A DNA stretch of 64,000 bases, from the IMG/VR virus record IMGVR_UViG_3300037423_000584. One strand, given 5' to 3'. Below, piece after piece: positions 5,901 to 51,559 of the stretch (position 1 is the first letter of the stretch; each line of letters starts with the position of its first letter). Below the pieces are notes generated by a model. It worked only from the letters and a program-made list of their open reading frames with translations, was not told where the DNA came from and did no database searches. This DNA comes from a virus. The position numbers and the translations under genes are program-made.

Positions 5901-5915
5901 AAAAGGTAGGTAGGT

Positions 5916-7089: not shown

Positions 7090-7200
7090 CAAGATCCAAC
7101 ACTCTAACTGTCTCTAGTTTCCGGTATCGTAGATATGTAGTAGCTTAGATAGAACAAGAGGCGACCGGGCACCGTGCCCGGCCGCTCTTGTTTGGGAGAT

Positions 7201-7365: not shown

Positions 7366-7439
7366 CAGACTCGGATGCCGACAGGCGGAGAGTCTGCGAG
7401 CGGCTGCGGCGAAGTACGGGCAACGTGCTTATGATTACT

Positions 7440-9510: not shown

Positions 9511-10017
9511 ATGGAAAAGCTTCGTCGTCTAATTCTTGACGGTATGAAGAACGTTGACGGTTATATTACCGTTACTGCTTTAGCTGAGGGTATTAAAAAA
9601 ATATCATCATTTACTGTTGATGAAGTGAAAACCGAAATCAACCGTATGGTTCTTGATGGGATTTTGGATACCTTTTATGCCCGATCCGAAGCGGATTTGG
9701 CTATTAGACAGCTTAGTAAGAATAAGCAAAAGGTCTATATTCGAGATTATCTTGTGTCTCGAAATGGTGCGGTTTATATCTCTAATATTCCTCCCAATCA
9801 TACTTCTGAACAGTTCAAAAATAGGAAGTATCTTTGGAAGAATAACACTTGGCACGATACGTGCTGTACAAGGGATCTGATGGATTCGGATAGCAAAAAC
9901 TATACCGATTATCCGGGGATATGGACTTCCTTGGATGAGGCAATTAAGTTTGCTAAGTCTAAAGGTTACGATCCTGTCGATCTAACTGATTCTATAATTC
10001 AGTCTCAGGTTATCTAA
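9511..10017 (+). CDS. hypothetical protein; N-terminal winged-helix-like, C-terminus distantly like the NSxRYA family
   Basis: AAGGTAGGT RBS; KYLWKNNTW...WTSLDEAIKFAK. Confidence 0.65.
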   Translation: MEKLRRLILDGMKNVDGYITVTALAEGIKKISSFTVDEVKTEINRMVLDGILDTFYARSEADLAIRQLSKNKQKVYIRDYLVSRNGAVYISNIPPNHTSEQFKNRKYLWKNNTWHDTCCTRDLMDSDSKNYTDYPGIWTSLDEAIKFAKSKGYDPVDLTDSIIQSQVI

Positions 10018-25049: not shown

Positions 25050-25195
25050 GCCCCAATAGTTTAACAGGACAGCGAGAAACACCTACCAAGCCCACGGCTT
25101 TCTGTGAAAGCAGAAGGTACGCCGCCGTTAGTGGATCTTGCTAAAAACCGTTGCCTCTCAGGCAAATGATCTACGTTCGAATCGTGGTTGGGGTA
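25050..25195 (+). ncRNA. tRNA-Glu(CTC)-like RNA with D-loop insertion, copy 1
   Basis: GCCCCAA/TTGGGGT; TTGC-CTCTCAG-GCAA; CTACG-TTCGAAT-CGTGG; insert class CCACGG/TACGCC. Confidence 0.85.
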
Positions 25196-25557: not shown

Positions 25558-25702
25558 GCCCCAGTAGTTTAATAGGCGAAGCGATACTATCTAAGTCACT
25601 AGGCTTCTTGAGAAATCAGGAAGTTATAGCACATTTAGTGTTGTCTTCTTAAAACGTTTCGCTCTCAGCGAAAATATCTTGGTTCGACTCCAAGCTGGGG
25701 TA
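25558..25702 (+). ncRNA. tRNA-Glu(CTC)-like RNA with D-loop insertion, copy 2
   Basis: GCCCCAG/CTGGGGT; TTTCG-CTCTCAG-CGAAA; insert class CACTAG/ATAGCA. Confidence 0.85.
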
Positions 25703-25898
25703 CTATGACAGCAGCAGAACTAGCACGGAAGCTAATGGAACATCCACATGTACAAGTTCACATGGAAGGAGAACTTAATGCCAATGTAGACCATTTTATA
25801 GATGCAATTGGCAAAATAGTCGTTGCTGAAATGAATATGAAAGAATATGGGGTTAAAAAAGGCGATCTCATAATCTTAAATAAAACTAGATGAAATTT

Positions 25899-26041
25899 GC
25901 CCCGCTAGTTCAATAGGCGAGAGAAATATCCTCTAAGTCACTAGGTTTCATGGTGAGTGAAACCATAGCACATTGGATGTCGCTCTCATAGAACAGATTC
26001 CTCTCAGGAATAAAATGTACGTTCGAATCGTACGCGGGGTA
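25899..26041 (+). ncRNA. tRNA-Glu(CTC)-like RNA with D-loop insertion, copy 3
   Basis: GCCCCGC/GCGGGGT; ATTC-CTCTCAG-GAAT; GTACG/CGTAC. Confidence 0.85.
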
Positions 26042-26051: not shown

Positions 26052-26291
26052 ATGGCTACATATCATTTAAGAAAAAAGGAAGATGAAGATTTCAGGATAG
26101 TTAGATACGAAGATGGCAGAATGCATTTCAATCCATGCTATCTTAATAAAAATGGTCTTTTTCAAAGAATAATAGAGAGACCGTATGATACTTATAACTC
26201 TAGGAGATATGCGATAGCTTTCTTTAAGAAGTGTTTGCCAAACGAAGTTCTTCGAGATGAAACTGCCAGAAAGACAAAGTTAATTAAGTAA
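26052..26291 (+). CDS. NSxRYA-family small protein
   Basis: YLNKNG...YNSRRYAIAFFKK. Confidence 0.8.
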   Translation: MATYHLRKKEDEDFRIVRYEDGRMHFNPCYLNKNGLFQRIIERPYDTYNSRRYAIAFFKKCLPNEVLRDETARKTKLIK

Positions 26292-26296
26292 TACAC

Positions 26297-26441
26297 GCCC
26301 TCGTGGTCTAATAGGCGGATGTTAAATTTACAATCACTAGTTTCCTGCGGAAACGTTGGAAAGATAGCATTGTTTATTTAATTATCCATATGACAGCCTT
26401 CTCTCAGAAGGAAAATGCACGTTCGAATCGTGTCGAGGGTA
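26297..26441 (+). ncRNA. tRNA-Glu(CTC)-like RNA with D-loop insertion, copy 4
   Basis: GCCCTCG/CGAGGGT; CCTT-CTCTCAG-AAGG. Confidence 0.85.
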
Positions 26442-26629
26442 TTAGTATTTTTTATAGGATTTGTAGTCAAATCTATGAGATATAAACAACTATTCGAAAC
26501 AACGGATGAAATTAAAGCAAATGAAAAAGTTCTCAATGGATGGGTTCTTATAGAAACTAAGAATGACTCTGGACGATTTAATAATAATCGTCCTATATAT
26601 GTATTAGGGATTCCTAAATAGTTCGATAC

Positions 26630-26714
26630 GCCGGTGTGGCGGAACGGCAGACGCTACGGACTTAAAATCCGTTGGGAGATAACTCCCGTAAGGGTTCGAT
26701 TCCCTTCTCCGGCA
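26630..26714 (+). tRNA. tRNA-Leu(TAA)
   Basis: Type II cloverleaf, ACGGA-CTTAAAA-TCCGT, variable arm GGGAG/CTCCC. Confidence 0.92.
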
Positions 26715-27327
26715 CTAATTTACTTGGATTAATTAAATGACACCTTATCAAAAACGTCTTTGCTTATTGGAATAATTGGCTGGTTATTTTACGCTGGTTT
26801 TTCATATCTAATTATTAGTAAAGGATATATAGAAGATAATGAATGGACTGTTGGTAAAAGAAATAGATGGATCACTATTTGTTTATTAACTGGTCCGTTT
26901 ATGTTTGCTTTTTTATTTTGTATTTGGATTTTCTTTAGTGATAAACCTGCTAAGTGGTAAATTATGATCAAGCATCATCCCTATATCTTTTTTGAACTTG
27001 TTTGAATTCTTTGTTGGATTGTTTCTTGGTTTATATATCGTTATTATGAACGAACAGATCATCCAAACAGATGGACTATTAGACACAGAAATATGTCTCT
27101 TGTGATTTGTTTTTGTATGTCGCCGATTGCAGCATTTTTGCTAACTATATTAGCAATGTTTAATTGTGCTGATAAATCATTTGAATATTGCAGTAAAAAA
27201 ATAAATCAACTTAGATCTTGGATTAAATCAGATACTAGAATTTCTGACTGGTAGAATTATACTGAAAATGATGAATAGGACTATTTCACAAGCAAAAACT
27301 TGGTAGATCTTGGATTCATTTTCTGGA

Positions 27328-27452
27328 AACAGATGACGCCAAACTAGGAATGGCAGGCGGCGAGATCGTCATGGCAATGATCGATGGATCAACGAAGCTC
27401 ATAAACCGCTAGACTAGTCCACCTATGTAGGTTCGATCCCTACCATCTGTTC
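27328..27452 (+). ncRNA. tRNA-like RNA with structured insertion in place of the anticodon loop
   Basis: AACAGATG/CATCTGTT; D arm GCCA/TGGC; GCGG/CCGC; GTAGG-TTCGATC-CCTAC. Confidence 0.65.
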
Positions 27453-28043
27453 TTTTATGGGAGGTATATGAGCGAAGAGTATACTGTGTTTTCTAACATA
27501 GGTATGATCAAAGGTTACTTTAATTTAACCGATGATGAATATCATAGGTTCAAAGAACTTATGAAATCTATGCACTTTATAATTCGGAAAGGACGTATAG
27601 AAAAATCGATTCGTATTCCTATTAATCGTCGTGTTGCAATTAGGGGTGCAGTTAAGCCAAATTCAGAACAATTGACATGATTATATTCCGAAAAGGTCAA
27701 AATCATAGTGTTTTGATTAATCTTTTTGTTGTTTGGATTATTGTTCATTATTGGTTTCCTAAATCGTACTGGAAACATTTTAGACTAACAAAGAAAGATC
27801 CCTTTTGGAATAGTTCTCTATATTTAGGACCTTTTGAATTTTACTGGGATCGACGACGACAATTTGATCAAGAACGAATCAGACTATTGTATCGATTTGC
27901 CATTATTGATTGGCATTTCGTAGTATGGAAAGAATACTGGCAGTTTAACGAAATCATTAAAGCGGAGGTGATTTTCTCAACAGCTAAATTGTTAGATTCG
28001 ATTAAGATTTAATACCTACCCTGATGACAAAGGATGGTTTGTT

Positions 28044-28679
28044 ATGGCCCAAGGTAGATTGAATAGAGACGGTCGTGATAGTTATCGTAACTTAGATAGA
28101 CCATTTCGTGCTCCGCGTGAAATCCTTGATAAAAATGGCGATTTTGTCAAGTTTCACGATATGGACGTAATGCGTCTTGGCAATCATGATAGGTCAATGA
28201 ATACCACTGGCTCATTTGGTGTTAAAAGCACAATGGGCGTCGGACGACTAAGTATAGTTGTCCGAAAAGGGGCACCTGGAAAATCAAGAGCCGGACGTAA
28301 AAAGAAAAACGGCTCAAAACTGATATCTCGTAGATTTACGATTGACTATGATAAGCATAGTTTTCCTCAGTTAAGAAACTTGAGGAATGATCTTATTGTA
28401 GTTAAAACGATGTCAGAAGGTCTTCCTGAACACCAAGGAAGAAAGCTGTTTACTTTTGAAATGCAAGATGTCTTAAGAACGTTAGATAATTACATAGAAA
28501 CAACGTTCGATGCTGCTCTTATTGAACAAATACACATCTCTGATCAACATAGAATTGCATCTACTAAAGGCATGATGCGTAGCGGGAAGGTAAGAGCAAA
28601 AGGTATTGAGGATCTTGGAAATAGAATTTACCGTGCTTTGTCTATAATGAACATAAAACACGGAAAAATGAACACATAA
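28044..28679 (+). CDS. basic hypothetical protein, paralog of 15065-15574
   Basis: Shared NTTG/APGK/KKKNGS motifs; AAAGGATGG RBS. Confidence 0.75.
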   Translation: MAQGRLNRDGRDSYRNLDRPFRAPREILDKNGDFVKFHDMDVMRLGNHDRSMNTTGSFGVKSTMGVGRLSIVVRKGAPGKSRAGRKKKNGSKLISRRFTIDYDKHSFPQLRNLRNDLIVVKTMSEGLPEHQGRKLFTFEMQDVLRTLDNYIETTFDAALIEQIHISDQHRIASTKGMMRSGKVRAKGIEDLGNRIYRALSIMNIKHGKMNT

Positions 28680-29806
28680 CATAACAATCTGCGTTGTGTC
28701 ATGGAATCCCATATATCGAAAGATTATGGGATTTCTTTATGAAAAGAAATATAGAAAACATTATCATAATATTGATAATTGTGTTTCTTACTATTATAAT
28801 TCCATTGTTATGTCTTTATGTAATTTGGGCTTAATATTACGTTTGCTATATTAAAGATTATAGTTAACGTAATACTCAAACAATAAGAAAATACAGTTCT
28901 ATCAAGAAGACTTTCAAAATTAAATTAGTCTAAATAACCAAATCTTATGTTTATAAATCTTCTTGACTAGACTGTATTTATCTCTTTTATACTTAATACT
29001 TACAAAATACTTAAGTAATATCGTATAAATTCAGAGAACTTTTTACTAGAAAATAAATAAATCTATGTGGGAATTCTTTAAATTCATTAGTATACTTTGT
29101 TTGACAATGATTGTAGTGTTTACTACTATTTGGTTTATCTCTAATCTTGCTAACTTATTATGAATAAAAGAATTAGAAAAACTATTATTAGAATTGTAAA
29201 TGCTTTTGAAGAAGGCGATTACAATCTTGTAGATTCTTTGTCCAAAAAACTTGACTATTTAAAAGAAAGCCATTTTGGACGCATTATGGACAAAATGATC
29301 GATGGCCAAAATTAATTACAAAGTAAATGATTTCGTTACTATTTTGAAATACAAAAACGATCCTATCAACAAAGAAGGAAGAATAACTGTTGTATACGAA
29401 AGTGGTCATGTTCATGTCAGCAATTTAAATATGCCATTTTGTGGATCTGTTAATAGAATTTTTAGACCAGATGAAATTGCACCTGTTACAAATATTGACT
29501 AATTTATATTGTTTAGATGGAGACGATTCTAGTTTAACAGAAGACGAAAAAGAAAAGATTAAACAATCTCTAGGTCCAAACTGGAGAACTATTCTGTTGG
29601 AAAAGAAAGTTAAACAGACTCAAGTTCAAGATGAACAAATTCCAGCTATTTGCGAGTCGTCAGAATTATCGTAGGCTATGCGTGGGAGGTGGGATAACCT
29701 CCACCATAGGTTTCATATAGTTTAAACGCTATATGAAATCTTAAAGGATGGAAGGGGATTAGGGGTGAAACACCATTCGTTGTGGCTTAGCCACAGGAGT
29801 TACACC

Positions 29807-30298
29807 ATGGCTGAACAAGCAGCCAATATTCAGAGCTTCGCTGATGATGCAATGCATCGGCTGGCTACGTATCTCAAGGTTACTGATCGCTCGCAGGAAT
29901 GGATCGATCAGAATATCGAATGCGTTGCAGCTTTGCTTGACATTACCAAGCACGACGCACTGGAAGGCATGAAGAAATTCATGACCTTGGAAAATCGTGA
30001 GAATCAACAGGGTCAAGTCCGTCAGGAAGCTAGACAGACTGCCACTGTTGGTTCTGGTGGAGGCGGTGGAGAACAGGATGCTCGCGAAGAGCTTGATAAA
30101 GCAATTCGTGAGTCTCAGGGTGGCGGTGGTGGTGGACAAGGAGGCCAAGGCGGTGGCGGCGGAAGGCCGCAGAATAGTCCGTCCGCTAATCAGGCCAGAA
30201 GCCAAGCCTTACAAGGCAACCAGAACGCTGCTGGTCCACATTCCGGCGGCGGTGGGCGTGGCCAAGGAGGCGGTGGAGGCGGTGGAGGCCAAGCGTAA
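29807..30298 (+). CDS. protein with Gly/Gln-rich disordered C-terminus
   Basis: AGGAG RBS; GGGGGQGGQGGGGGR repeats. Confidence 0.7.
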   Translation: MAEQAANIQSFADDAMHRLATYLKVTDRSQEWIDQNIECVAALLDITKHDALEGMKKFMTLENRENQQGQVRQEARQTATVGSGGGGGEQDAREELDKAIRESQGGGGGGQGGQGGGGGRPQNSPSANQARSQALQGNQNAAGPHSGGGGRGQGGGGGGGGQA

Positions 30299-30354
30299 TT
30301 TTTAACAAATGAGGTAATCACAAGTGTCCCCGTAGGAAACTGCGGGGATATTTT

Positions 30355-41104: not shown

Positions 41105-41314
41105 ATGACTACGTACTATAAATTAAGAAATGAGAGATCTGGATATAGAATAATAAAATATCCGCAAGGTGAACCTCACTTATATCTTCTTAAGAACGGA
41201 ACTTGGTATCGTTGGTATAATAATAGAATTCTTTTTAATTCAAGAAGATATGCGATTCAAATTTTCAAAAAATATTATCCAAACGATAGGTTAATAGATG
41301 AATCCACTTCCTGA
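41105..41314 (+). CDS. NSxRYA-family small protein
   Basis: YLLKNGTW...FNSRRYAIQIFKKYYP. Confidence 0.8.
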   Translation: MTTYYKLRNERSGYRIIKYPQGEPHLYLLKNGTWYRWYNNRILFNSRRYAIQIFKKYYPNDRLIDESTS

Positions 41315-41513
41315 TACTGAATATGAAATAGCTTCTGGTTTTCGCGGATATAGAATAATAAAATGGTTCTGGGATAACAATAATATATATCGTTATAATT
41401 ATCTTGATAAAAATGGCAACTGGACCAGAGAACATTGCCATTATAATTCAAAGAGATATGCTATAAGTATATTTAAAAAATATCTTCCAAAAACAAAATT
41501 CTTTATAAAATAA
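41298..41513 (+). CDS. NSxRYA-family small protein
   Basis: YLDKNGNW...YNSKRYAISIFKKYLP. Confidence 0.8.
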   Translation: MNPLPDTEYEIASGFRGYRIIKWFWDNNNIYRYNYLDKNGNWTREHCHYNSKRYAISIFKKYLPKTKFFIK

Positions 41514-41517
41514 CAAC

Positions 41518-41661
41518 GCCCCAGTGGTCTAATAGGCGAGGAGTGAATTTGAGAAGTCCCCAGTTTGCTGTGCAAACAGTAGATATGGCACCTCATATTT
41601 ACGAATCATATGACAGTGCTCTCTCAGAGCAAAGATCCAAGTTCGAATCTTGGCTGGGGTA
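41518..41661 (+). ncRNA. tRNA-Glu(CTC)-like RNA with D-loop insertion, copy 8
   Basis: GCCCCAG/CTGGGGT; TGCT-CTCTCAG-AGCA; CCAAG/CTTGG. Confidence 0.85.
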
Positions 41662-41671
41662 TTTTTGATAT

Positions 41672-41929
41672 ATGAAATATTTTATAGATGCTACATGTCC
41701 AGAAGATATAGTTGTCATGAGACAACCAGAAAATCGTGAATTGTATCCAGACTCAGTTTGGCTTAATCACGATGGCAAATGGGAAGATAGTCCATACTAT
41801 GAACGCAACAGAACAGAATATAATAAATTTCTTAAAAGAACTACATTTAATTCTGTAAGATGGGCTCTTTCTGTTTTATATAAAGCAGAAGGTAAAAAGA
41901 TCAAAAAAGAAATAATTACAGATTTTTAA
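41672..41929 (+). CDS. NSxRYA-family small protein
   Basis: WLNHDGKW...FNSVRWALSVLYK. Confidence 0.8.
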   Translation: MKYFIDATCPEDIVVMRQPENRELYPDSVWLNHDGKWEDSPYYERNRTEYNKFLKRTTFNSVRWALSVLYKAEGKKIKKEIITDF

Positions 41930-41934
41930 TTATT

Positions 41935-42081
41935 GCCCCGATGGTCTAATAGGCGACAATGAATTAAGAATATCCCCAGTTTCCTAGCGAAAACGCTAAG
42001 AAATATGGCATATCTTGATTCTGAGTCAGATGACGACAATCTCTCAGATTGTAGATCTTCGTTCGAGTCGAAGTCGGGGTA
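41935..42081 (+). ncRNA. tRNA-Glu(CTC)-like RNA with D-loop insertion, copy 9
   Basis: GCCCCGA/TCGGGGT; ACAAT-CTCTCAG-ATTGT; CTTCG/CGAAG. Confidence 0.85.
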
Positions 42082-42085
42082 TTTT

Positions 42086-42328
42086 ATGACAAAAGAATTA
42101 GTGATATTTAATATTCCCGGAGAACCATCTTATAGAATACAAGCACTTGGATATGATGGTTTTCCCGGTGAAGACGCAAGAGTTGGCAAAAATAAAAAAC
42201 TTCATAATTTAACTGTTTATACTGTTGGTACTTATAATACAGAATTAGATTTTAATTCTCGTCGTTATGCGATACAAGTCGCAAAAGAATTTGATCCATC
42301 TGCTAAAATAACAACTACAAAATACTAA
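42086..42328 (+). CDS. NSxRYA-family small protein
   Basis: MTKELVIF...FNSRRYAIQVAK. Confidence 0.8.
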   Translation: MTKELVIFNIPGEPSYRIQALGYDGFPGEDARVGKNKKLHNLTVYTVGTYNTELDFNSRRYAIQVAKEFDPSAKITTTKY

Positions 42329-42549
42329 TGATAAAGGTTTCAAGATCACATTGGAATAATAAACTTTTCTATGTAATGAATGTAGAAAATAATAATTTCC
42401 TAAGAACAGATGGAACTTGGCGACATCTTGAGCGTGGCTATCTAAGGATAGAACAAAATCCGGAGTTCTATTTCAATTCAAGAAGATGGGCAATTTCTGT
42501 TCTAAAGAAACTAATTCCAGATGTTAAATTTAGAGATTTTGCAAAATGA
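42328..42549 (+). CDS. NSxRYA-family small protein
   Basis: FLRTDGTW...FNSRRWAISVLKKLIP. Confidence 0.8.
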   Translation: MIKVSRSHWNNKLFYVMNVENNNFLRTDGTWRHLERGYLRIEQNPEFYFNSRRWAISVLKKLIPDVKFRDFAK

Positions 42550-42779
42550 AAGAATGTTGGATATCAGACTGGCACAGTGGCATGGTATGGATAAACGAAG
42601 GAAGATTTCCTGATTCTCTAAGATCACTAACTATTTATGGAACATTAGAACCTTGGGTAGCAGGAAACAAAAAGTTTACATTTTCATCCAGAAGATATGC
42701 AATTCAAGTTCTAAGAAAATATTTTCCAAATTGTAAAATAACTAGAGATATGCAAAAAGAAAAAGAAAGACGTAGATAA
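42546..42779 (+). CDS. NSxRYA-family small protein
   Basis: FSSRRYAIQVLRKYFP. Confidence 0.75.
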   Translation: MKECWISDWHSGMVWINEGRFPDSLRSLTIYGTLEPWVAGNKKFTFSSRRYAIQVLRKYFPNCKITRDMQKEKERRR

Positions 42780-42798
42780 AAGTTTGTAATTATTTTAC

Positions 42799-42945
42799 GC
42801 CGCTTTGGTCTAATAGGAGGTGAGGATATGGGACTAATCCCCAGCTTTCTTGCGAAAGCGAGACAGTATGGCATTGCCTAATATTCAAACCAAATGATAT
42901 CTTTCTCTCAGAAAGAAGATAAAGGTTCGAATCCTTTAAGCGGTA
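42799..42945 (+). ncRNA. tRNA-Glu(CTC)-like RNA with D-loop insertion, copy 10
   Basis: GCCGCTT/AAGCGGT; TCTTT-CTCTCAG-AAAGA; AAAGG/CCTTT. Confidence 0.85.
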
Positions 42946-42953
42946 TTTAGATT

Positions 42954-43175
42954 ATGAGATATATTATATTTAATGGCACATTAGGATGGTTAGTTTGGAC
43001 AGACACTGCTCCAAATGAAAAATATTTACATAAAAGTGGAGATATTAGAGAATGGGATCGTACTAATTGGAAAGATCATTGTGTAAATTCACGAAGACAT
43101 GCAATACAATTAATAAAGAAAATTGATCCAAAAGCTAAAATAATATCATATAGATATAGATATCCTGAAAGATAA
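42954..43175 (+). CDS. NSxRYA-family small protein
   Basis: YLHKSG...VNSRRHAIQLIKKIDP. Confidence 0.8.
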   Translation: MRYIIFNGTLGWLVWTDTAPNEKYLHKSGDIREWDRTNWKDHCVNSRRHAIQLIKKIDPKAKIISYRYRYPER

Positions 43176-43180
43176 AACAC

Positions 43181-43299
43181 GCCCCAGTAGTTTAACAGGG
43201 TAACTAGAGTTATTATACGCCACGGGCCGAATTAACTTAAGTTACAAAGAACAATCAACTCTCAGTTGAAAAGTATTCGTTCGAATCGGATCTGGGGTA
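43181..43299 (+). ncRNA. tRNA-Glu(CTC)-like RNA with short D-loop insertion, copy 11
   Basis: GCCCCAG/CTGGGGT; TCAA-CTCTCAG-TTGA; insert stem GTAACT...AGTTAC. Confidence 0.8.
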
Positions 43300-43309
43300 C
43301 TTAAACTAT

Positions 43310-43528
43310 ATGACTGAATACATATTATGGAAATCAAATGACTACAGAGGTTACTTCTTTGTAACAAAATATGATGAATATGGATATTGTAAGGCATATT
43401 TATCAAAATCTGTTTCGTGGACTCATCAATTAGATAGAAATATAACTTATTTTAATTCAGAAAGATACGCTATTCAAATATTAAAATTATTGGTTCCTAA
43501 CGCAAAGTATACTAAGTATAAGTATTAA
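43310..43528 (+). CDS. NSxRYA-family small protein
   Basis: YLSKSVSW...FNSERYAIQILK. Confidence 0.8.
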   Translation: MTEYILWKSNDYRGYFFVTKYDEYGYCKAYLSKSVSWTHQLDRNITYFNSERYAIQILKLLVPNAKYTKYKY

Positions 43529-43564
43529 AATCCTCGCATGTGTAATAAGGGAAAACATAAAACC

Positions 43565-44371
43565 TTATTGCATAGATGCGAGATGTAAACATTTTATCCT
43601 TTTGTCTATTATTGACTTTATTTGATCATAAAATTCAAGTATTTTATATTGTTTACCACAATATCTATGAGATATATCTATTATATGTAATTCGATATTG
43701 TTTTCATTACATAATATTTGTTTTCTTTTATCAGATTCAGTTGTTCTATTAAAACTTTTTTCTCCGTAAATTGGTTTATAATGACAAATTCCATTAATTT
43801 CGAAAGCAATATCTAACTTTGGTATTAATATATCAAGTTCAAGTCCAGATAGAATATTTCTATTATTGAATAGAATATTTAAATCTGGATAATTTTTTCT
43901 TAATAGTTTTTCTATACAAATTTCTGCTTTTGATCTTCCTAAATCATTTTTTTGACAGTAGTTGTGATAACACGGTCCAGAACAAAAATTTCTTTCATTA
44001 TTATTGCTTGGTTTTCTGAAAATATCCTTATTGCAATAAGCACAATTTGATTTTATTTTTTCTGGTCCTCTAGGATCGTGTCCATGTCTTTCTTTTAAGG
44101 TATAAACAGAACAGCATTTCCTAGAACAAAAGTGTCTAGGATATTCTTTAACTTGTCCAGTAAGTTTATTAAATACTTTATCACATCTTAAGCATTTTAC
44201 TTCTGTATATGTTTTGTAATCTTTTAATTGTTGCCTTCTGAAATAAGTTGTTCTACAAGATCTTGTACAGAAATTAGATGTTGTTCTTTTAATTTCCGAA
44301 TTAAATTTTAGAAATTCATTATCACAATATAAACACTTAACTAAGGTACTATTATTTAAATTTTTATGCAT
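43565..44371 (-). CDS. putative homing endonuclease: three CxxC/FCSxxC zinc repeats plus Vsr/DUF559-like PD-(D/E)XK domain
   Basis: SKAE...ELDILIP..DIAFEINGICHY...D.RK. Confidence 0.8.
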   Translation of the reverse strand: MHKNLNNSTLVKCLYCDNEFLKFNSEIKRTTSNFCTRSCRTTYFRRQQLKDYKTYTEVKCLRCDKVFNKLTGQVKEYPRHFCSRKCCSVYTLKERHGHDPRGPEKIKSNCAYCNKDIFRKPSNNNERNFCSGPCYHNYCQKNDLGRSKAEICIEKLLRKNYPDLNILFNNRNILSGLELDILIPKLDIAFEINGICHYKPIYGEKSFNRTTESDKRKQILCNENNIELHIIDISHRYCGKQYKILEFYDQIKSIIDKRIKCLHLASMQ

Positions 44372-45004
44372 AAAACTATAAATGAAAGTTATGGAATAAT
44401 TAATAAAAATGTTGGATATCGATATTTATTATCGAGTCCAGACAATATTGATGTTAATAAAAAATATCCTCTTATTGTCTATCTATCATCAGCGGGATGT
44501 AGAGGAAGTATAGAAGCCGTAAAACAAGAATCTGTTTGTTCTTGGTTTAAAAACCATATTCCTTTTTATGTTCTTGCACCCGTTTGTCCTCATAACGAAA
44601 TTTATGATCCTGACTCTGTAAAATATTTGATTGATAAAACAGTTGCAGAAAATCCTATTGATATAAATCGTTTATATGTCAGTGGATACAGTATGGGGTC
44701 AAGAGGCTGTCATAATTGTCTTTCTGAGTATCCAGATCTATTTGCAGCTTCAGTTATAGTCTGTGGAGTGTCGTCATATCTAGTTGCTGCTAAATATGCT
44801 CATGTTCCAATACATCTATTTCACGGTGATAAAGACGAAGTTGTTAGTATAAACGAATCCTTAAAAATATTTCATGCTTTAAGAGAGCATGGTGGTAATC
44901 CTAAGTTCCAAGTTCTTAAAGGATTTGGACATGATATTTACGAAGAAGTTTATGGTTCCACCGATACGTATCGGTGGTTATTGTCTCATTCTAAGAAAGG
45001 GTAA
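44366..45004 (+). CDS. alpha/beta-hydrolase (esterase/peptidase)
   Basis: KYPLIVYL, RLYVSGYSMG, HGDKDEVV, GH triad pattern. Confidence 0.85.
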   Translation: MHKTINESYGIINKNVGYRYLLSSPDNIDVNKKYPLIVYLSSAGCRGSIEAVKQESVCSWFKNHIPFYVLAPVCPHNEIYDPDSVKYLIDKTVAENPIDINRLYVSGYSMGSRGCHNCLSEYPDLFAASVIVCGVSSYLVAAKYAHVPIHLFHGDKDEVVSINESLKIFHALREHGGNPKFQVLKGFGHDIYEEVYGSTDTYRWLLSHSKKG

Positions 45005-45006
45005 TT

Positions 45007-45153
45007 ATGCCTGGTCCGTCTGGTCAAGTTAATGCTCGTCATGCTCGTCATACCGCTGGCAAGAAGGGCTTTGGTGCCGAACGTCATCTTATGAATCTTT
45101 CTCCTTCTACGGAACGTGGGAAGCGTCGTAGGGCGAAGAAGGGTAAGAAGTAA
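45007..45153 (+). CDS. 48-aa very basic peptide (not in ORF track)
   Basis: MPGPSGQVNARHARH...ERGKRRRAKKGKK; CGT/AAG-rich codon usage. Confidence 0.55.
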   Translation: MPGPSGQVNARHARHTAGKKGFGAERHLMNLSPSTERGKRRRAKKGKK

Positions 45154-45351
45154 TAAATATATGGAAGCAATACTGTTTAAAACAGTTGTATCGTTTTTTG
45201 TTTGTGTTTTTATTGGATTCTTTGTAGCATTAGCTACTTCTGGTAATGACGAAGCTTTAGCTAAATGGTATACCCACAAATACTTTCCATGTATTTGTAT
45301 TATTTTTGGGTCTACTATTGTCGTAGAAATAATGCTATTTTAATATAGCTC

Positions 45352-45498
45352 GCCCGCATGGTCTAATAGGCGAATATAATATTACCCAATCCCCAGCTTT
45401 TGTGCAAAAAGCATAAGAGCATGGCATTGGGTTTTATTATATTCATATGACAGTCACCTCTCAGGTGACAGATGAAAGTTCGACTCTTTCTGCGGGTA
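45352..45498 (+). ncRNA. tRNA-Glu(CTC)-like RNA with D-loop insertion, copy 12
   Basis: GCCCGCA/TGCGGGT; GTCAC-CTCTCAG-GTGAC; GAAAG/CTTTC. Confidence 0.85.
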
Positions 45499-45505
45499 TT
45501 TTGTT

Positions 45506-45751
45506 ATGTTAATACGTTTGTATCAAAATCCAAATCCAAATAGTAATACATTTATATGCTATATCAAGAATAATTCAGAAAATTGGCCTTGGGGTAAAAC
45601 ATATTATCTGAAAAATAATGGTGTGTGGCATAAAAATAGATGGCCCGGATGGGACGATAAATGTCATAATATAATATATAATTCTAGAAGATACGCTATA
45701 CAAACAATCAAAAAATATTTTCCAGATGCAAGAATCAAAGAAATTAAATAA
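45506..45751 (+). CDS. NSxRYA-family small protein
   Basis: YLKNNGVW...YNSRRYAIQTIKKYFP. Confidence 0.8.
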   Translation: MLIRLYQNPNPNSNTFICYIKNNSENWPWGKTYYLKNNGVWHKNRWPGWDDKCHNIIYNSRRYAIQTIKKYFPDARIKEIK

Positions 45752-45932
45752 TTTATTCAAAATGCTATCTTATTCATCAGATGGTATCATGAATATTTAT
45801 ATCAGAGATAAAAAGTATAGTTATATAAATGTTCCAAGAAATCTTTATCAAAGAATAGATTTTCTTATATCTAAAAACAATAACTCTTTAGTATCTAAAT
45901 TATTAAAAAATGTTCAAATATATAATAATTAA
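45726..45932 (+). CDS. KTSC-like small protein
   Basis: YSYINVPRNLY motif. Confidence 0.4.
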   Translation: MQESKKLNNLFKMLSYSSDGIMNIYIRDKKYSYINVPRNLYQRIDFLISKNNNSLVSKLLKNVQIYNN

Positions 45933-46143
45933 ATCTTCGATGGTAAGAGGATCTTTTTATATAAAAAGAACTTCAGACAATGATAATAAAAGATGGTTTC
46001 TAAATCCTAAAAAAGATCTTTGGGAAGATCGTATTGATTATATAAACACTCGACATTTGTATTATAATTCATACAGATATGCAGTACAAAGACTTAAGAA
46101 ATTGATACCTGATATAAAGTTTATCTATCAGGATTTTTCATAA
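45910..46143 (+). CDS. NSxRYA-family small protein
   Basis: YNSYRYAVQRLKKLIP. Confidence 0.8.
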   Translation: MFKYIIIKSSMVRGSFYIKRTSDNDNKRWFLNPKKDLWEDRIDYINTRHLYYNSYRYAVQRLKKLIPDIKFIYQDFS

Positions 46144-46144
46144 T

Positions 46145-46390
46145 ATGTATAAATACGAAATAGTCAAATCTAAACATCATAAGAAAAATTGGTTCTTTAT
46201 AAGAAGAAGACCAACGAAAAGAAATACTTGGATATGGGGATATTTATCCGATTCTTTTGAACGTTGGCATTGGGTATATCGCGAATGGGATTCCGAATAT
46301 CATTATAATTCCTTTAGACGAGCAGTACAGCGTCTTAAAGAAATTGTTCCAAATGCTAAGTATAGATTTATAGATCAAACAAAGTTATAA
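46145..46390 (+). CDS. NSxRYA-family small protein
   Basis: YNSFRRAVQRLKEIVP. Confidence 0.8.
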   Translation: MYKYEIVKSKHHKKNWFFIRRRPTKRNTWIWGYLSDSFERWHWVYREWDSEYHYNSFRRAVQRLKEIVPNAKYRFIDQTKL

Positions 46391-46614
46391 TGATATATAA
46401 AGTAATGAAATTTGGTAGAATGGGATGGTACATTACATCTATTATTCCAATAAATAAAGAGTATCCAAATAGAGATTATTATCTTCACAAAGATGGCAGA
46501 TGGATATATGGAACTATGAATGAAAATAAAGAATATTCTGGATATTTTAATACCAGAAGATATGCCATTCAAGTATTAAAGAAATATTACCCAGATGCAA
46601 AAGTGGCAAAATGA
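46390..46614 (+). CDS. NSxRYA-family small protein
   Basis: YLHKDGRW...FNTRRYAIQVLKKYYP. Confidence 0.8.
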   Translation: MIYKVMKFGRMGWYITSIIPINKEYPNRDYYLHKDGRWIYGTMNENKEYSGYFNTRRYAIQVLKKYYPDAKVAK

Positions 46615-46844
46615 AATGGTTAGTAGCTAATCAATATGCAAATCATTGGTACGTTTGTAGAATAGAACGTCTCGACTTTAGACATAAAACAATATATCTT
46701 TCTAAAACAGGAAAAGAAATTATTGGTCCATATAATAATTTTGGCCAACTTTACTTTAATTCCCGAAGATTTGCAATACAAATAGTTAAACAAGTAGACA
46801 AAAATGCTAAATTGGTTAAAAACGCAATCGAGCTATTTAATTAG
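46611..46844 (+). CDS. NSxRYA-family small protein
   Basis: YLSKTG...FNSRRFAIQIVK. Confidence 0.8.
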   Translation: MKWLVANQYANHWYVCRIERLDFRHKTIYLSKTGKEIIGPYNNFGQLYFNSRRFAIQIVKQVDKNAKLVKNAIELFN

Positions 46845-47097
46845 TTGCTTTTTCATTAAAAAAAATAGATATAAGTATCAGATTGTTGTTAAGACAAACG
46901 GTTATCGTTATATCCAACGTTTTGATAGAGAATTTGAACTATTTTCTTATCTTACAAAGAAAGGTAAATGGGACATAAGAAGACCATATAGTGTATTCGA
47001 AGATAATGATAGACTATATAATAGTAGACGATTTGCGATTTCACAATTGAAATCAAAAATAGGCGATAAAGAATTTCAAGAAATAAAAGGTTTGTAA
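46804..47097 (+). CDS. NSxRYA-family small protein (start uncertain)
   Basis: YLTKKGKW...YNSRRFAISQLK. Confidence 0.75.
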   Translation: MLNWLKTQSSYLISCFFIKKNRYKYQIVVKTNGYRYIQRFDREFELFSYLTKKGKWDIRRPYSVFEDNDRLYNSRRFAISQLKSKIGDKEFQEIKGL

Positions 47098-47103
47098 TTA
47101 ATC

Positions 47104-47249
47104 GCCCCATTAGTTTAACAGGACAGTTTGTTGATTTTACCAAGTCCACGGCTTTTTGCGAAAGCAAAAAGTACGCCACCGTTTGATCGACTTACTAAAA
47201 ACCTCTTTCTCTCAGAAAGATGATTTACGTTCGAATCGTAAATGGGGTA
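47104..47249 (+). ncRNA. tRNA-Glu(CTC)-like RNA with D-loop insertion, copy 13
   Basis: GCCCCAT/ATGGGGT; TCTTT-CTCTCAG-AAAGA; insert class CCACGG/TACGCC like copy 1. Confidence 0.85.
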
Positions 47250-47253
47250 TTAT

Positions 47254-47481
47254 ATGTTTCACTATGCTTTGGCGATACAAAATCAGGCTTTAAACACGTT
47301 TAGAATAGTACGTTTTGGAGGTGGATTTGGAGCACATCGTCTTAATAAAGATGGAAAATTTGTTCCAATAGGAGAAAAATATGAAAAATATAATTCTAGA
47401 AGGCATGCTATACAAATGTTTAAAAAATTCGTTCCAAACGAAAAACTATTTGATAATAGTACCGGCAAAGTAATTAAATAG
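47254..47481 (+). CDS. NSxRYA-family small protein
   Basis: LNKDGKF...YNSRRHAIQMFKKFVP. Confidence 0.8.
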   Translation: MFHYALAIQNQALNTFRIVRFGGGFGAHRLNKDGKFVPIGEKYEKYNSRRHAIQMFKKFVPNEKLFDNSTGKVIK

Positions 47482-47486
47482 AATAT

Positions 47487-47691
47487 GCCCCACTAGTTTA
47501 ACAGGAAGTACATGTAACTTGTGGACCAAAGTTCCCAGTCTAGATATTACAATTCTCTTATGTATCGACAGTATACATTTGTGATCGCAAGATCTCAGAG
47601 GATTTGTTTTTGATGATATGGCACTCCATGTTCGGTACGAAAACAGTTGTCTCTCAGATAAAAGATCGTCGTTCGAATCGACGGTGGGGTA
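47487..47691 (+). ncRNA. tRNA-Glu(CTC)-like RNA with extra-long D-loop insertion, copy 14
   Basis: GCCCCAC/GTGGGGT; TTGT-CTCTCAG-ATAA; CGTCG/CGACG; TCCCAG...ATGGCA core enclosing about 75 nt. Confidence 0.8.
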
Positions 47692-47698
47692 CTTTATT

Positions 47699-48285
47699 AT
47701 GATTCAAAATAATATAGCCAAAATAACTCTCAATGCTTTAATTAGAATCCTTAGCAATTTATCTACTATAGACAAAAAACTAAATATAAAACCGGGAGAA
47801 TATTCTCCTAATATTCTTATAATGGAAATAGATGGGGGTCCAAATGATGGAAGACTTGTTTGGTCAGCAAAAGATCAACAAGCTTATTACGTAACAGACC
47901 AATGGTTTAATATAATTACCAAGAAGAAAGAAGAAACATTAGATACGCAAAATGCTAATTCTATTGTTTTAAATATATGAAAATAACATTAAAGGCTCTT
48001 CATAAAATGCTACTTGCAGTATTTCCATTGAAGCACTTTAGTTTTGATGGAAGTCCACAGGGAGAACTATATTTTTGGGCAGATGGAACAGTTGAATCTG
48101 GCCAAGGCTTTTTGTGTTATTCGATAGAAACAGATGAAATAACTCTTATATCTAATACATGGAAACCAAAAATAGAAGAATTTCTTAGATCTATTGGAAA
48201 TAAAACCAAAGAACAACAAGAATTATTTTCTGACGCCGATTTCGCAGAGTATCAAAAACACAATTGTTTAGGAACAGATATATGA
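47699..48285 (+). other. two paralogous ORFs (47699-47980, 47977-48285); third paralog 49743-50069
   Basis: Shared KITLxAxxxxL N-terminus and L.[WY]....Q/E.....W C-terminus. Confidence 0.55.
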
Positions 48286-49022
48286 AGAAAAAGCGGCACG
48301 ACAAGATTTGTTTACTTTGTAAAAAATCTAGAGCCATTTATGCTATTCAAAATCTATTCTTGCCAAATGGCAAAGTTCCTAAGAGGAAAAGAACACAAAT
48401 AAGAACTAGACCGATTATTTGTGATTGTTGTGCTAGTCCTGATAAGTTTGCCATTCCTGTTATTATAACTAAAAGTCCTGAACAGTGTAAGGATTTGATT
48501 TGTAAGTATGCCGAAAATTCCAAAGATAGAAAAGACTATTCACCGATTCTTCTTTATCAAAATCCCAAATCAATAGAGCTTGCTAATAAAGATCCTCTAC
48601 CTATTTGGGTAATGTCGAGACAAATGGTGGGTACTATGCAAATAGATGCTCCTCATATTGTTATTTCGATTACCAATCCGGGATCTAATCCTGCATTTAT
48701 CAATCAAAATGGATATCTTTTAGATATACATCGTGTTTCCTTTGATGATGCAGATAAATTCCATAAAGACGGTAAGACTTATAATATAATCACAGAGAAA
48801 CAGGCAAAGGATATCTGGCACTTTGTCAAGAAAAATAAGTGGCGAACAAGTGTAATTGTTTGTCATTGTGAAGCAGGACGAAGCAGAAGTGCGGGTGTTG
48901 CCGCCGCTTTGTCTAAGATAATTAATGGAACCGACGAAGAATATTTTAAGAAATATACTCCTAATAGTAAAGCTTATGCCGCTATATTAAAGGTGGTTTA
49001 TGGCGATCATGCCAAACAATAA
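48282..49022 (+). CDS. protein-tyrosine/dual-specificity phosphatase-like protein
   Basis: VISIT...FDD...VCHCEAGRSRSAGVA (CX5R). Confidence 0.8.
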   Translation: MKKKRHDKICLLCKKSRAIYAIQNLFLPNGKVPKRKRTQIRTRPIICDCCASPDKFAIPVIITKSPEQCKDLICKYAENSKDRKDYSPILLYQNPKSIELANKDPLPIWVMSRQMVGTMQIDAPHIVISITNPGSNPAFINQNGYLLDIHRVSFDDADKFHKDGKTYNIITEKQAKDIWHFVKKNKWRTSVIVCHCEAGRSRSAGVAAALSKIINGTDEEYFKKYTPNSKAYAAILKVVYGDHAKQ

Positions 49023-49180
49023 TAAAGTATTCTGGCTTATTCTACTGATCATTTCTTTTTGTATGTTTTGGTTCTCACTAAGATACGGAGTAGATAAAGC
49101 AAATCCTATTAATTTGACTATAGTTTTACTAATAACAATTTACTCATCTGTAATGTTGTCATTAGATAAATAAACTAAAA

Positions 49181-49314
49181 TCCCAGCGTAGTTTAAATAC
49201 GAGCATCTGATCTAAACACCAAGGAGTGAAATCTTTGGTGTATTTTTGTTTGTCTTGTGGGAAAACATCGCTCGCTTGGGCGACATTAAGAGTTCGAATC
49301 TCTTCGTCTGGGAC
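49181..49314 (+). ncRNA. degenerate tRNA-like RNA with D-loop insertion
   Basis: TCCCAG/CTGGGA; GTTT/AAAC D stem; TCGCT/GGCGA arm; AAGAG-TTCGAAT-CTCTT. Confidence 0.6.
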
Positions 49315-50074
49315 TTTTATGAAAGGCAATATGCATAGCACAAATGGAAATCTTGCTAGCCTAGTAAGGACCTCTGTTATAGAAGATCATGGTATGAAAT
49401 TATATATCTGGGATAGTATACCTGGATATGAATCTTTCATGGTATTTGCTTCTTCCACAGAAGAAGCCATACAAAAATGCGAAGAATCTATGATGCCATT
49501 TGAAATACTAAAGCATCTTAAAGATTTTCCACCGTGTAGAATTGTAGAAAATAAACCTACCATTATTGCTATTAGATCCAATATAATTATATGAGTACAA
49601 CAGAAATAAATGAAGAACGTCTTTATCCTTCCATAGTTAAATATCCTAAAGATCCTCCGTCTGCATCAGAACTAGAACGATTGGAAAAAGAAGAGAAAGA
49701 AAAATCGGAGATAAAGAAGTGACCCTTTTGATAGGCATTGAAATGATTAAAATTACCTTGTCTGCCGTTGTTAGAATCCTTGCGAAACAGGGATTTCAAT
49801 ATATTATAGAAACAGTAGATGACACGGAACATGACACTGTATGTTTTGTGACTTCTGATGGTTATCCAGAAACAGTCGGTCCTTTTGTTTACGATAATAC
49901 TCAAGAAGGTCTTCAACAAGCATTACACAAGCGTGCTCATAAAAAGACTCCTTTGTTGTATTATAACATGGAAACACAAATGATAACTTCTTGTTGTCAA
50001 GAATGGCTTGATCTTTTTAAGGACGAAGCTAGAGCTTGTAAAGATAATTCTATAGCTATTGTTCAATAACTAAC

Positions 50075-50237
50075 GCCCCAGTAGTTTAATAGGGAATTTT
50101 AGAAACCGGTCATACGTTGAAAACTAGTAGATTCCTAGAATCGAAAGTAAGTACATACGCTCATTCCGTGAAGTATAAAGTTCAAAGAACGTTATCCTCT
50201 CAGGATCATGGTCTTGGTTCGAATCCAAGTTGGGGTA
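50075..50237 (+). ncRNA. tRNA-Glu(CTC)-like RNA with divergent D-loop insertion, copy 15
   Basis: GCCCCAG/TTGGGGT; ATC-CTCTCAG-GAT; CTTGG-TTCGAAT-CCAAG. Confidence 0.75.
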
Positions 50238-50243
50238 TTTAAT

Positions 50244-50507
50244 ATGATACAAATTATAAAAGATACTTGGTTTGAGAACAAATGGTTTATCTTTAATTAT
50301 AAAAATCGAGATGGCAATTATTTCTTAACAAAAAAATTAAAATATCAACGTCTTGAGACAACGGATTATAATGCCAAGAAAGAAAAATCTATTATATATT
50401 TTAATTCCTTAAGAGAAGCCATAAGCATTCTTAAAAAAGTACATCCTAAAATAGAACAATCAGAATATTCTATAAATAAGCGAGATAATAATGGGCAAAA
50501 GTATTAA
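50244..50507 (+). CDS. NSxRYA-family small protein
   Basis: FLTKKL...FNSLREAISILKKVHP. Confidence 0.75.
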   Translation: MIQIIKDTWFENKWFIFNYKNRDGNYFLTKKLKYQRLETTDYNAKKEKSIIYFNSLREAISILKKVHPKIEQSEYSINKRDNNGQKY

Positions 50508-50962
50508 AAAACAATTTAGCCAAACTCATGCAGGATTGAGTCCGTATTGTGTTTGGATCTTAGTAGGTATTATTCTTGGAACTAAGATTCCAGAGATCAA
50601 AGATGAATATAAAAAGAAACAGGTTTCAATTTCTTTAAGAGGTGATACTCATGTTTTTCCAGTAATGACAAATGCTGTCAAATCATTGGAAAAATATGGT
50701 TTTATACAACTTAATACTAGACTAGAATGCTATAAATTAACCTCGAAAGGTTTTAATGTAGCACATGATAAACTTAAAGAAGCCGGATTTAAGTTAGGAC
50801 TTTCTTCCACTATTTAATGGGTTATTATTTGTTGTCAATTAGGCATGACGTTGCGATTGCCAAGTTATATTATTCATTTAGTATAGCGTTTTAGATACAA
50901 ATAATACTTTAAAAACTCAGTTCCGATACTATACAACCCTTATAGTTGCAAAGTCGGAACAT

Positions 50963-51034
50963 ACCCATGTAGCTCAATGGTAGAGCGTTCCGCTGTTAAC
51001 GGAATGGTTGGTGGTTCGAATCCATCCGTGGGTG
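50963..51034 (+). tRNA. tRNA-Asn(GTT)
   Basis: ACCCATG/CGTGGGT; TTCCG-CTGTTAA-CGGAA; TTCGAAT. Confidence 0.9.
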
Positions 51035-51041
51035 TTAAATT

Positions 51042-51296
51042 ATGAGATTTCATATAGTAAGATCAAAAATATTAGTCGATAAAGAATATTATTTAATAGC
51101 ATTATGCTATGATAAACCTCCGCATATATTCCGTGGAAAATGGTTATCAAAAAATGGTAAATTCACATTTGGAAATGGCTGTATGCATCCAAATCAAATG
51201 CATGAATTCCATTTTAATTCTATAAGATATGCGATTCAGACTGTTAAAAAATATTATCCAGAACTTAAAAAATCAAATGTATTTATTAAAAAATGA
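51042..51296 (+). CDS. NSxRYA-family small protein
   Basis: WLSKNGKF...FNSIRYAIQTVKKYYP. Confidence 0.8.
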   Translation: MRFHIVRSKILVDKEYYLIALCYDKPPHIFRGKWLSKNGKFTFGNGCMHPNQMHEFHFNSIRYAIQTVKKYYPELKKSNVFIKK

Positions 51297-51559
51297 TATT
51301 TAAAATAATAGAAGGATTTGGACCAAGAAGAGGAACATATTGTATCGCAGTATGTAAAGGTAAAAATCGTATTGCACACTGCTGGATAACAAAAAATTTA
51401 AAAACAGAAGTTCCAAAATATGACTTAATAGGAGAATCATATGAATATTATATGAAAATATTTTATTATAACTCTGTTAGATATGCAATACAAACGTTGA
51501 AAAAAGTTTTTCCAAATACAAAAAGATCCGAAATAGAATTTCCAACAAGGAGAAATTGA
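51293..51559 (+). CDS. NSxRYA-family small protein
   Basis: WITKNL...YNSVRYAIQTLKKVFP. Confidence 0.8.
   Translation: MIFKIIEGFGPRRGTYCIAVCKGKNRIAHCWITKNLKTEVPKYDLIGESYEYYMKIFYYNSVRYAIQTLKKVFPNTKRSEIEFPTRRN

Follow-up and report, generated by a model that had tools for sequence, protein, structure and literature searches.

Why should a phage carry more than twenty genes for one kind of small basic protein, and why should so many of them begin only a few nucleotides after an RNA that looks like a tRNA? The question is raised by a 64,000-nucleotide stretch (the window) of virus record IMGVR_UViG_3300037423_000584, a record of 172,542 bp that is rated complete by CheckV and of which the window is a part. 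Between 26.0 and 51.6 kb of the window, all on the + strand, lie 22 open reading frames (ORFs) that a preliminary description, made from the sequence alone, had taken for paralogues, and the window also contains 15 RNAs resembling tRNA-Glu. We give a probability of about 0.4 to the reading that the proteins bind tRNA-shaped RNA and are expressed from tRNA-punctuated transcripts.

That the ORFs belong together was established by profile search. All 22 were found at the starts given in the preliminary description, and a hidden Markov model (HMM) of the family recovered exactly these 22 in the window, with E-values from 1.8e-24 to 3.7e-14, which shows profile-level homology among them. The motif pointed out earlier was also found, in the form [FY]NSxRxA[IL]xx[LIVF]KK, and the family consensus reads ...YLxKxGxW...[FY]NSRRxAIQxLKKxxP. 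In the alignment of the 22 sequences, which are 68–97 aa long, the Arg is invariant and Leu, Asn, Ser, Ala and Lys are nearly so, while the mean column identity of the paralogues is 23%. The proteins are basic, with a median pI of 9.8, and their aromatic content is 12–24%. Since the conserved residues of the motif use 4–5 synonymous codons each (TCT, TCA, TCC, AGT and AGC for Ser; AGA, CGT, CGC, CGA and AGG for Arg; GCA, GCG, GCT and GCC for Ala), the motif is maintained by selection on the protein and does not reflect a repeated stretch of DNA. At 40039, 42086, 47254 and 50244, the later start codons chosen in the preliminary description proved correct: the longer calls of the ORF tool extend into upstream structured RNAs, which end 4–8 nt before the chosen ATGs. 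No Shine-Dalgarno sequence was found upstream of any family member. The ORF at 9511–10017, once suggested as a distant member, was rejected, with an E-value of 1.7 against the family HMM and no place among the matches of the expanded HMM.

The family HMM finds 27 members in the whole genome, namely the 22 of the window and five in a second cluster. A sister genome has the same layout, with 3 mismatches in 20 kb, which are too few for an estimate of selection from this one genome. Searching a profile against 1.84 billion representative proteins returned 102 matches, 25 self and 77 non-self, and 75 of the latter are proteins of 65–116 aa with the same motif; P0021, a match of 587 aa, was dismissed as a low-complexity repeat. 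Relatives were read as contig fragments (L003, L008, L009, L010, L015, L016 and L018), and the eight relatives with examined contigs all lie on phage-like metagenomic contigs. Copy number ranges from 1 to 27 between contigs, with 11 members in the array of L003, 10 in L016, 8 in L008, 6 in L009 and 2 in each of L010 and L015. Nothing published on this protein family was found in the literature. It is a genuine, previously unannotated protein family, rare, and amplified to 27 diverged copies in the studied phage.

The second component of the locus is an RNA of 119–205 nt, present in 15 copies on the + strand of the window and first spotted as T-arm-like strings in the ORF translations. In all 15 copies the loop reads exactly CTCTCAG, the T-loop is GTTCGA and the 3′ end is GGTA, in most copies GGGGTA. 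With Rfam they align to tRNA with a D-loop insertion of 64–74 nt, and the inserts are mostly of 60–75 nt within a range of about 45–130 nt. The seven-pair acceptor stem, the T-arm, G18G19 and the seven-base anticodon loop of canonical tRNA are present; the RNAs depart from it in the D-loop, which is not normal, and in a length beyond 70–90 nt. ARAGORN in default mode calls none of the 15. The acceptor and T stems are 99–100% paired, with compensatory changes. The fold of the insert consists of a long helix, an asymmetric junction that is conserved and a hairpin capped by GNRA. By covariance model and pair counts over 19 copies, 93.4% of the cells were paired, whereas shuffles gave 65.5% and slid controls about 40%; of 39 pairs, 32 showed compensatory (double) changes. 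A tRNA cloverleaf with a D-loop insert is strongly supported as the predicted structure. Its D-arm and its loop (anticodon CUC, A37) are tRNA-Glu-like, and the anticodon CUC or UUC with A37 is kept in four of five contigs.

Some features of the insert deserve mention beside this structure. In the RNA at 41518–41661, for example, the insert junction is AAGUCCCCAG ... UAUGGCA and the apical loop is GNRA. The classic 11-nt GAAA-tetraloop receptor is CCUAAG_UAUGG (bioRxiv 10.1101/2024.03.11.584472). The 3′ strand of the junction, UAUGG, is identical to one strand of this receptor and the other strand (CCCCAG or CACUAG) is merely similar; the arm that bears the junction ends in GAAA or GCAA. These likenesses hint that the insert arm may take part in RNA–RNA docking. 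Further tRNA-shaped elements of a more aberrant kind occur at 49182–49313 and 30355–30463 (36–39 bits with the RNA model) and at 27329–27452 (seen in the intron mode of ARAGORN only), and the first of these ends 5 nt before an ATG. Unusually long tRNA-Ile(UAU) genes of 82–88 nt are also found in this phage group (window 32053–32224, L009:6690–6777 and L016:3005–3086).

What makes the locus unusual is the order in which the two components are arranged. In the window, 11 of the 15 RNAs directly precede a family member, and the ordinary tRNA-Asn precedes two. Expressed per member, 11 of the 27 start 4–10 nt after the discriminator base of an RNA, and one more starts 6 nt behind the tRNA-Asn, making twelve; as the preliminary description had said, two members stand behind this tRNA, which ends at 51035, with the first ATG at 51042. 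Upstream, the RNAs begin 4–19 nt after the preceding stop codon. Over five independent contigs, 20 of 33 RNAs have a family member within 12 nt and one more has it within 20 nt, and an ATG lies 2–12 nt after the RNA end in 27 of the 33 cases. Within the 4 kb of L003 there are three RNAs, every one just before a member; the 11 kb of L016 hold nine, most with YYCUCAG loops; L018 has a single RNA, preceding a member; and L008 has two tRNA-Glu(UUC)-like elements, one insert-free and one with a 37-nt insert. Ordinary tRNAs can also occupy the slot before a member, as seen for tRNA-Asn in the studied phage, tRNA-Phe in L010 and tRNA-Ile(UAU) in L009 and L016.

Co-location in one region could by itself bring RNAs and members together. 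The association was therefore tested with the gene calls inside the array region only, so that co-location alone gives no signal. Family members make up 10 of the 12 genes that follow an RNA there, compared with 11 of the 35 remaining genes (Fisher p = 0.0024). A link between members and upstream RNAs thus holds statistically, and it is repeated in four other contigs. The features are collected in Table 1.

Table 1. Family members, tRNA-like RNAs and selected neighbors in the window.
Feature	Coordinates	Strand	Remarks
Member 1, 79 aa	26052..26291	+	After RNA 25899-26041; AlphaFold2 (AF2) pLDDT 86.6
Member 2, 88 aa	37893..38159	+	Overlaps end of destabilase-like lysozyme gene; no upstream RNA
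Member 3, 87 aa	40039..40302	+	After RNA 39883-40030
Member 4, 80 aa	40448..40690	+	After RNA 40309-40443
Member 5, 69 aa	41105..41314	+	After RNA 40964-41099
Member 6, 71 aa	41298..41513	+	Overlaps member 5
Member 7, 85 aa	41672..41929	+	After RNA 41518-41661
Member 8, 80 aa	42086..42328	+	After RNA 41935-42081
Member 9, 73 aa	42328..42549	+	ATGA overlap with member 8
Member 10, 77 aa	42546..42779	+	Family HMM
Member 11, 73 aa	42954..43175	+	After RNA 42799-42945
Member 12, 72 aa	43310..43528	+	After RNA 43181-43299
Member 13, 81 aa	45506..45751	+	After RNA 45352-45498
Member 14, 77 aa	45910..46143	+	Family HMM
Member 15, 81 aa	46145..46390	+	Family HMM
Member 16, 74 aa	46390..46614	+	Family HMM
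Member 17, 77 aa	46611..46844	+	Family HMM
Member 18, 97 aa	46804..47097	+	N-terminal extension of ~24 aa overlaps member 17
Member 19, 75 aa	47254..47481	+	After RNA 47104-47249
Member 20, 87 aa	50244..50507	+	After RNA 50075-50237
Member 21, 84 aa	51042..51296	+	6 nt after tRNA-Asn
Member 22, 88 aa	51293..51559	+	Family HMM
tRNA-Glu-like RNA	25050..25195	+	CUCUCAG loop, D-loop insert; then non-family ORF
tRNA-Glu-like RNA	25558..25702	+	Then non-family ORF 25705-25893
tRNA-Glu-like RNA	25899..26041	+	Before member 1
tRNA-Glu-like RNA	26297..26441	+	Non-family ORF 33 nt later
tRNA-Glu-like RNA	39883..40030	+	Before member 3
tRNA-Glu-like RNA	40309..40443	+	Before member 4
tRNA-Glu-like RNA	40964..41099	+	Before member 5
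tRNA-Glu-like RNA	41518..41661	+	Before member 7
tRNA-Glu-like RNA	41935..42081	+	Before member 8
tRNA-Glu-like RNA	42799..42945	+	Before member 11
tRNA-Glu-like RNA, short insert	43181..43299	+	Before member 12
tRNA-Glu-like RNA	45352..45498	+	Before member 13
tRNA-Glu-like RNA	47104..47249	+	Before member 19
tRNA-Glu-like RNA, long insert	47487..47691	+	Then non-family ORF from 47699
tRNA-Glu-like RNA	50075..50237	+	Before member 20
Ordinary tRNA-Asn(GUU)	50962..51035	+	6 nt before member 21
Alpha/beta-hydrolase (Peptidase_S9-like) gene	44366..45004	+	Within array

This arrangement suggests how the genes might be expressed. Since promoter-like sites are not enriched in the array, and since the gaps of a few nucleotides from stop codon to RNA and from RNA to ATG leave no space for separate promoters, the array is probably transcribed through, as long precursors. 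Host tRNA-processing enzymes would then excise the tRNA-shaped RNAs, RNase P acting at the 5′ end and RNase Z or a similar enzyme at the 3′ end. Excision would release nearly leaderless mRNAs for the small proteins, so that the output of protein and of RNA would be coupled in a fixed proportion.

What the proteins themselves might do was approached through their predicted structure. AlphaFold2 gave a pLDDT of 86.6 for the window member that starts at 26052 and, for a member from another phage with a 91-sequence alignment, a pLDDT of 93.7 and a pTM of 0.79 with the same topology: a long beta-hairpin, two short strands, the conserved C-terminal helix that bears the motif, and a final strand. Judging from helical periodicity, Ala, Ile and Leu of the motif would lie on one face of this helix and the invariant Arg, Gln and Lys-Lys on the other, with Asn-Ser at the helix N-terminus. 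The small beta-sheet with one conserved C-terminal helix and variable loops that had been proposed from the sequence is borne out by both models, as is the basic character of the proteins; the nucleic-acid binding attached to that fold stays a prediction, made from the charge and the conserved basic face of the helix. A prediction of self-association gave a score of 0.00, with the mark at 0.42, which speaks neither for nor against it.

Because of the uniform basic charge, the conserved basic face of the helix and the genomic context, we take tRNA-shaped RNA to be the likeliest ligand. It would be host tRNA or the tRNA-Glu-like RNAs that the phage itself encodes. Contact would be made by the helix, with its basic face and its positive N-terminal end (Asn-Ser cap, invariant Arg, Lys-Lys), and by aromatic residues that are conserved in the sheet, while the variable loops would lend diversity to a second surface.

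Searches for relatives gave no confident match to a characterized family. Pfam had no match among 97 members (E <= 1), and no meaningful match was obtained in PHROGs or among PDB sequences with single members or with profiles of 22 and 97 sequences; in PHROGs, no profile was common to several members and the scattered single-member matches had E >= 0.006. Foldseek against the PDB returned nothing at E <= 0.001 for either AlphaFold2 model. In a wide VIA-align search, the best Z of the two models was 4.8–4.9, which is within noise; the best BFVD match (E 0.011) is an uncharacterized phage protein; and a language-model atlas search gave unnamed clusters only (0.78–0.80).

The sole recurring weak structural neighbors were DUF2188 (PF09954) and DUF1508/YegP/UPF0339 (PF07411), small bacterial and phage domains of unknown function. 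They resemble the family in size (about 50–70 aa), in an aromatic beta-hairpin sheet with one helix, and in a helix that opens with aromatic-x-Ser/Thr and has Ala four residues on. The helix motif of both domains is acidic (E-A), whereas that of the family has the invariant Arg and Lys-Lys. DUF2188 was the best Atlas neighbor, with TM 0.60 by query and 0.73 by target over 59 residues at an rmsd of 2.2. For DUF1508, the Atlas TM was 0.61/0.44 and VIA-align gave Z 3.4–4.8 to 2k49, 3bid, 6q2z and 2k7i, all under the level at which homology can be told apart from a shared arrangement; its phage proteins in BFVD had E 0.1–0.3. Membership in either domain family was rejected by sequence, since neither matched any of the 97 members and PF09954 and PF07411 were both silent in the phage at E <= 10. 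A relationship to YegP was likewise rejected by hhalign, which gave 0.3% probability for the 97-sequence profile against both repeats of six YegP proteins, with a YegP profile that was narrow (enterobacterial only). To our knowledge, neither DUF2188 nor DUF1508 occurs in 27-copy arrays or in tRNA islands.

Several results weigh against RNA-binding proteins from tRNA-punctuated transcripts. A directly upstream RNA or tRNA is missing for 15 of the 27 members, and RNAs also stand before unrelated small genes. Between the similarity of the RNAs and that of the proteins encoded next to them there is no correlation (Mantel rho −0.07, p 0.71); with this and the members that have no RNA of their own, the idea in the preliminary description of a set of RNA-binding specificities is unsupported. 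The basis of the presumed processing by RNase P and RNase Z is the tRNA-like shape only, and no homolog of known function was found. In addition, the distant relative P0057 is a membrane-anchored protein in which three family-like domains stand in tandem behind a membrane helix; their helix motif is acidic, [FY]xSKEEAExxL. This architecture would be more natural in a general binding module than in an RNA-binding protein.

The second cluster adds to these points. Its five members are tightly packed at 160693–161877 of the genome, about 10 kb beyond the end of the window, in RNA-free surroundings. It begins at the stop codon of the gene for a PTH2-type peptidyl-tRNA hydrolase (L012:9322–9726, 113 bits, outside the window). 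Since the two closest PTH2-bearing relatives have no family member after PTH2, and since PTH2 abuts ThyX in one of them, the five members seem to have been inserted between the genes for PTH2 and thymidylate synthase. A conserved partnership of the family with PTH2 was rejected because of the same two relatives.

Taken together, these observations open the way to another explanation, namely that the family is a fast-diversifying accessory set for host takeover or anti-defense which acts on host proteins without any link to RNA, the tRNA-shaped elements being generic expression punctuation in a plastic tRNA island. The strong divergence of the paralogues, the varying copy number, the unrelated genes behind RNAs and the members without them, the RNA-free insertion into a conserved backbone, the absence of RNA–protein co-variation and the tandem domains behind the membrane helix of P0057 all count for it. 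It does not readily account for the enrichment of members right after RNAs within the array, which recurs in the other contigs. A basic helix with an invariant Arg and a pI of about 9.8 suits nucleic acid better than a protein target, and no likeness to a catalogued anti-defense protein was found in Pfam or PHROGs. We consider this explanation somewhat unlikely, though it deserves serious attention.

The same insertion bears on the idea that RNA and ORF form a selfish cassette that copies itself to new genome sites, the protein serving its spread. The many copies, their number varying among relatives, and the five members placed between conserved backbone genes would agree with a mobile unit, and tRNA-like sequences are classic integration targets. 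The inserted cluster itself is RNA-free, however, and in these proteins of 70–90 aa neither a motif of a nuclease, recombinase or transposase nor any conserved acidic residue was seen. Moreover, the copies are old and diverged (25–50% identity) with no recent identical duplicates, the RNA and protein trees give no signal of joint duplication, and the sole sister genome is identical in layout. A selfish cassette is thus very improbable.

If the proteins do bind tRNA-shaped RNA, the glutamate branch of translation would be the likeliest setting, because the phage has its own glutamyl-tRNA synthetase (GluRS) and no ordinary tRNA-Glu. The enzyme is complete and of bacterial type (PF00749, 239 bits; PF19269, 96 bits). 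It is encoded at 153200–154669 of the genome (L012:2215–3684), about 2 kb past the end of the window and about 15 kb from the array. No canonical tRNA-Glu was found in the phage genome, which has 7 ordinary tRNAs only. The phage may thus manipulate or protect the glutamate-tRNA branch. In L003, a GluRS-like protein of 297 aa with the catalytic domain only is encoded at L003:2704–3597, inside the family array, and in the RNAs of this contig (738–860, 1302–1425 and 3603–3726) a 4-nt loop replaces the anticodon loop, with GNRA (GUAA, GCAA) in two of the three. An enzyme without an anticodon-binding domain beside RNAs without an anticodon loop is suggestive of a possible enzyme–RNA co-variation, seen in these two genomes.

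In this setting the proteins could work directly with the phage GluRS and with RNAs charged with glutamate, either as cofactors that bind the RNAs in trans and hand them to the enzyme, or by carrying, protecting or accepting the glutamyl end of the RNA. Such a partnership would agree with the Glu-type identity that the RNAs keep, with the presence of a complete GluRS and no normal tRNA-Glu, and with the lack of anticodon parts in both the L003 enzyme and its neighboring RNAs. The case comes from two genomes only, however, and in the studied phage the GluRS gene lies well away from the array. Targeted searches of the phage found no CCA-adding enzyme, no glutamyl-tRNA reductase and no Fem-type transferase (FemAB), which could make use of a charged RNA; a LanB search was silent, as was its control. 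GluRS genes are known from huge phages, and the phage enzyme may simply serve host tRNA-Glu. For these reasons we hold the partnership to be improbable. Slightly less so, and still doubtful, is the most extended form of the RNA-binding reading, in which the members and the tRNA-Glu-derived RNAs would make up a phage ribonucleoprotein system tied to its own GluRS. Tens of diverged particles, possibly charged with glutamate, would arise from the tRNA-punctuated transcripts and redirect, protect or decoy the glutamate-tRNA branch of host translation, for example against tRNA-cutting defenses. If true, this would be a novel sort of viral tRNA mimicry that has protein partners of its own.

Some further observations concern the surroundings of the array. 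The alpha/beta-hydrolase listed in Table 1 (about 205–212 aa) has a counterpart inside the family array of a second phage, at L008:8202–8813. A second small paralogous family occupies 47699–47980, 47977–48285 and 49719–50069, with N-termini ...KITLNALIRIL, KITLKALHKML and KITLSAVVRIL, and its first gene comes after the RNA at 47487–47691. Two adjacent 72-aa paralogues (31355–31573, MIEIEDKRESK..., and 31578–31796, MVEIKDRRKRD...) lie just upstream of tandem tRNA-Ile genes. The G+C content at 4001–8000 of the window is 0.47–0.50, compared with about 0.34, and the sole long ORFs there overlap on both strands (6577–7092); this segment may be non-coding or foreign. Outside the window, an IMP dehydrogenase/GMP reductase-like gene (L012:4952–6472) has weak, below-cutoff matches to intein/Hint domains in its middle and may contain an intein.

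The interest of the locus lies in the interleaving of one orphan protein family with one expanded family of tRNA-Glu mimics, in a fixed order of RNA then start codon, dozens of times and in several phages, with GluRS genes of the phages nearby. If RNA binding is true, the locus would encode a novel viral ribonucleoprotein that has a tRNA as its frame, and phages would have a further, new means of acting on translation or of evading tRNA-directed immunity. Even if it is false, the array is a natural case of tRNA-punctuated, Shine-Dalgarno-free phage gene expression, and the family offers a confident and apparently new small fold for structural study.

The usual view of a phage tRNA island is of spare tRNAs together with miscellaneous small genes, and the tRNA cluster of T4 offers an analogy of this kind. 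There, too, a tRNA island holds stable RNAs (C and D, of 139 and 119 nt) and small ORFs (trna.2-4) of unknown function, and the T4 tRNAs are cut from polycistronic precursors. Unlike the studied phage, T4 has no repeated RNA-then-ORF unit and no expansion of paralogues. As relatives, its RNAs were rejected, since the RNA model matches only a T-arm fragment of rnaC and rnaD, and homology of trna.2 and trna.4 to the family was ruled out at a probability <= 0.3%. Cef of T4, a conceivable precedent, does not lie in the T4 tRNA region that was examined.

Type III toxin–antitoxin systems (ToxIN-like) share the outline of a structured RNA directly upstream of a protein gene and co-transcribed with it. 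ToxN-type proteins are endoribonucleases of about 170 aa that bind and process tandem arrays of identical short RNA repeats. The studied proteins differ in having 70–90 aa, no nuclease-like motif, tRNA-shaped RNAs and many copies in one phage. Membership was rejected, since no ToxN/AbiQ-type Pfam match was obtained and the RNAs are single and diverged.

Large phages with oversized tRNA-like genes have been described in the Lak megaphages, where tRNA genes contain 'enigmatic introns', insertions that are conserved but unexplained (Devoto et al., bioRxiv 10.1101/356790). These inserts were placed by eukaryote-mode tRNA prediction, in few tRNAs and of different isotypes, and the description has no associated protein family, no 15-copy array of a single isotype and no location in the D-loop (10.1101/356790). 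The layout of RNA and protein reported here is without a described counterpart, and the array is best placed with the accessory arrays of phage tRNA islands.

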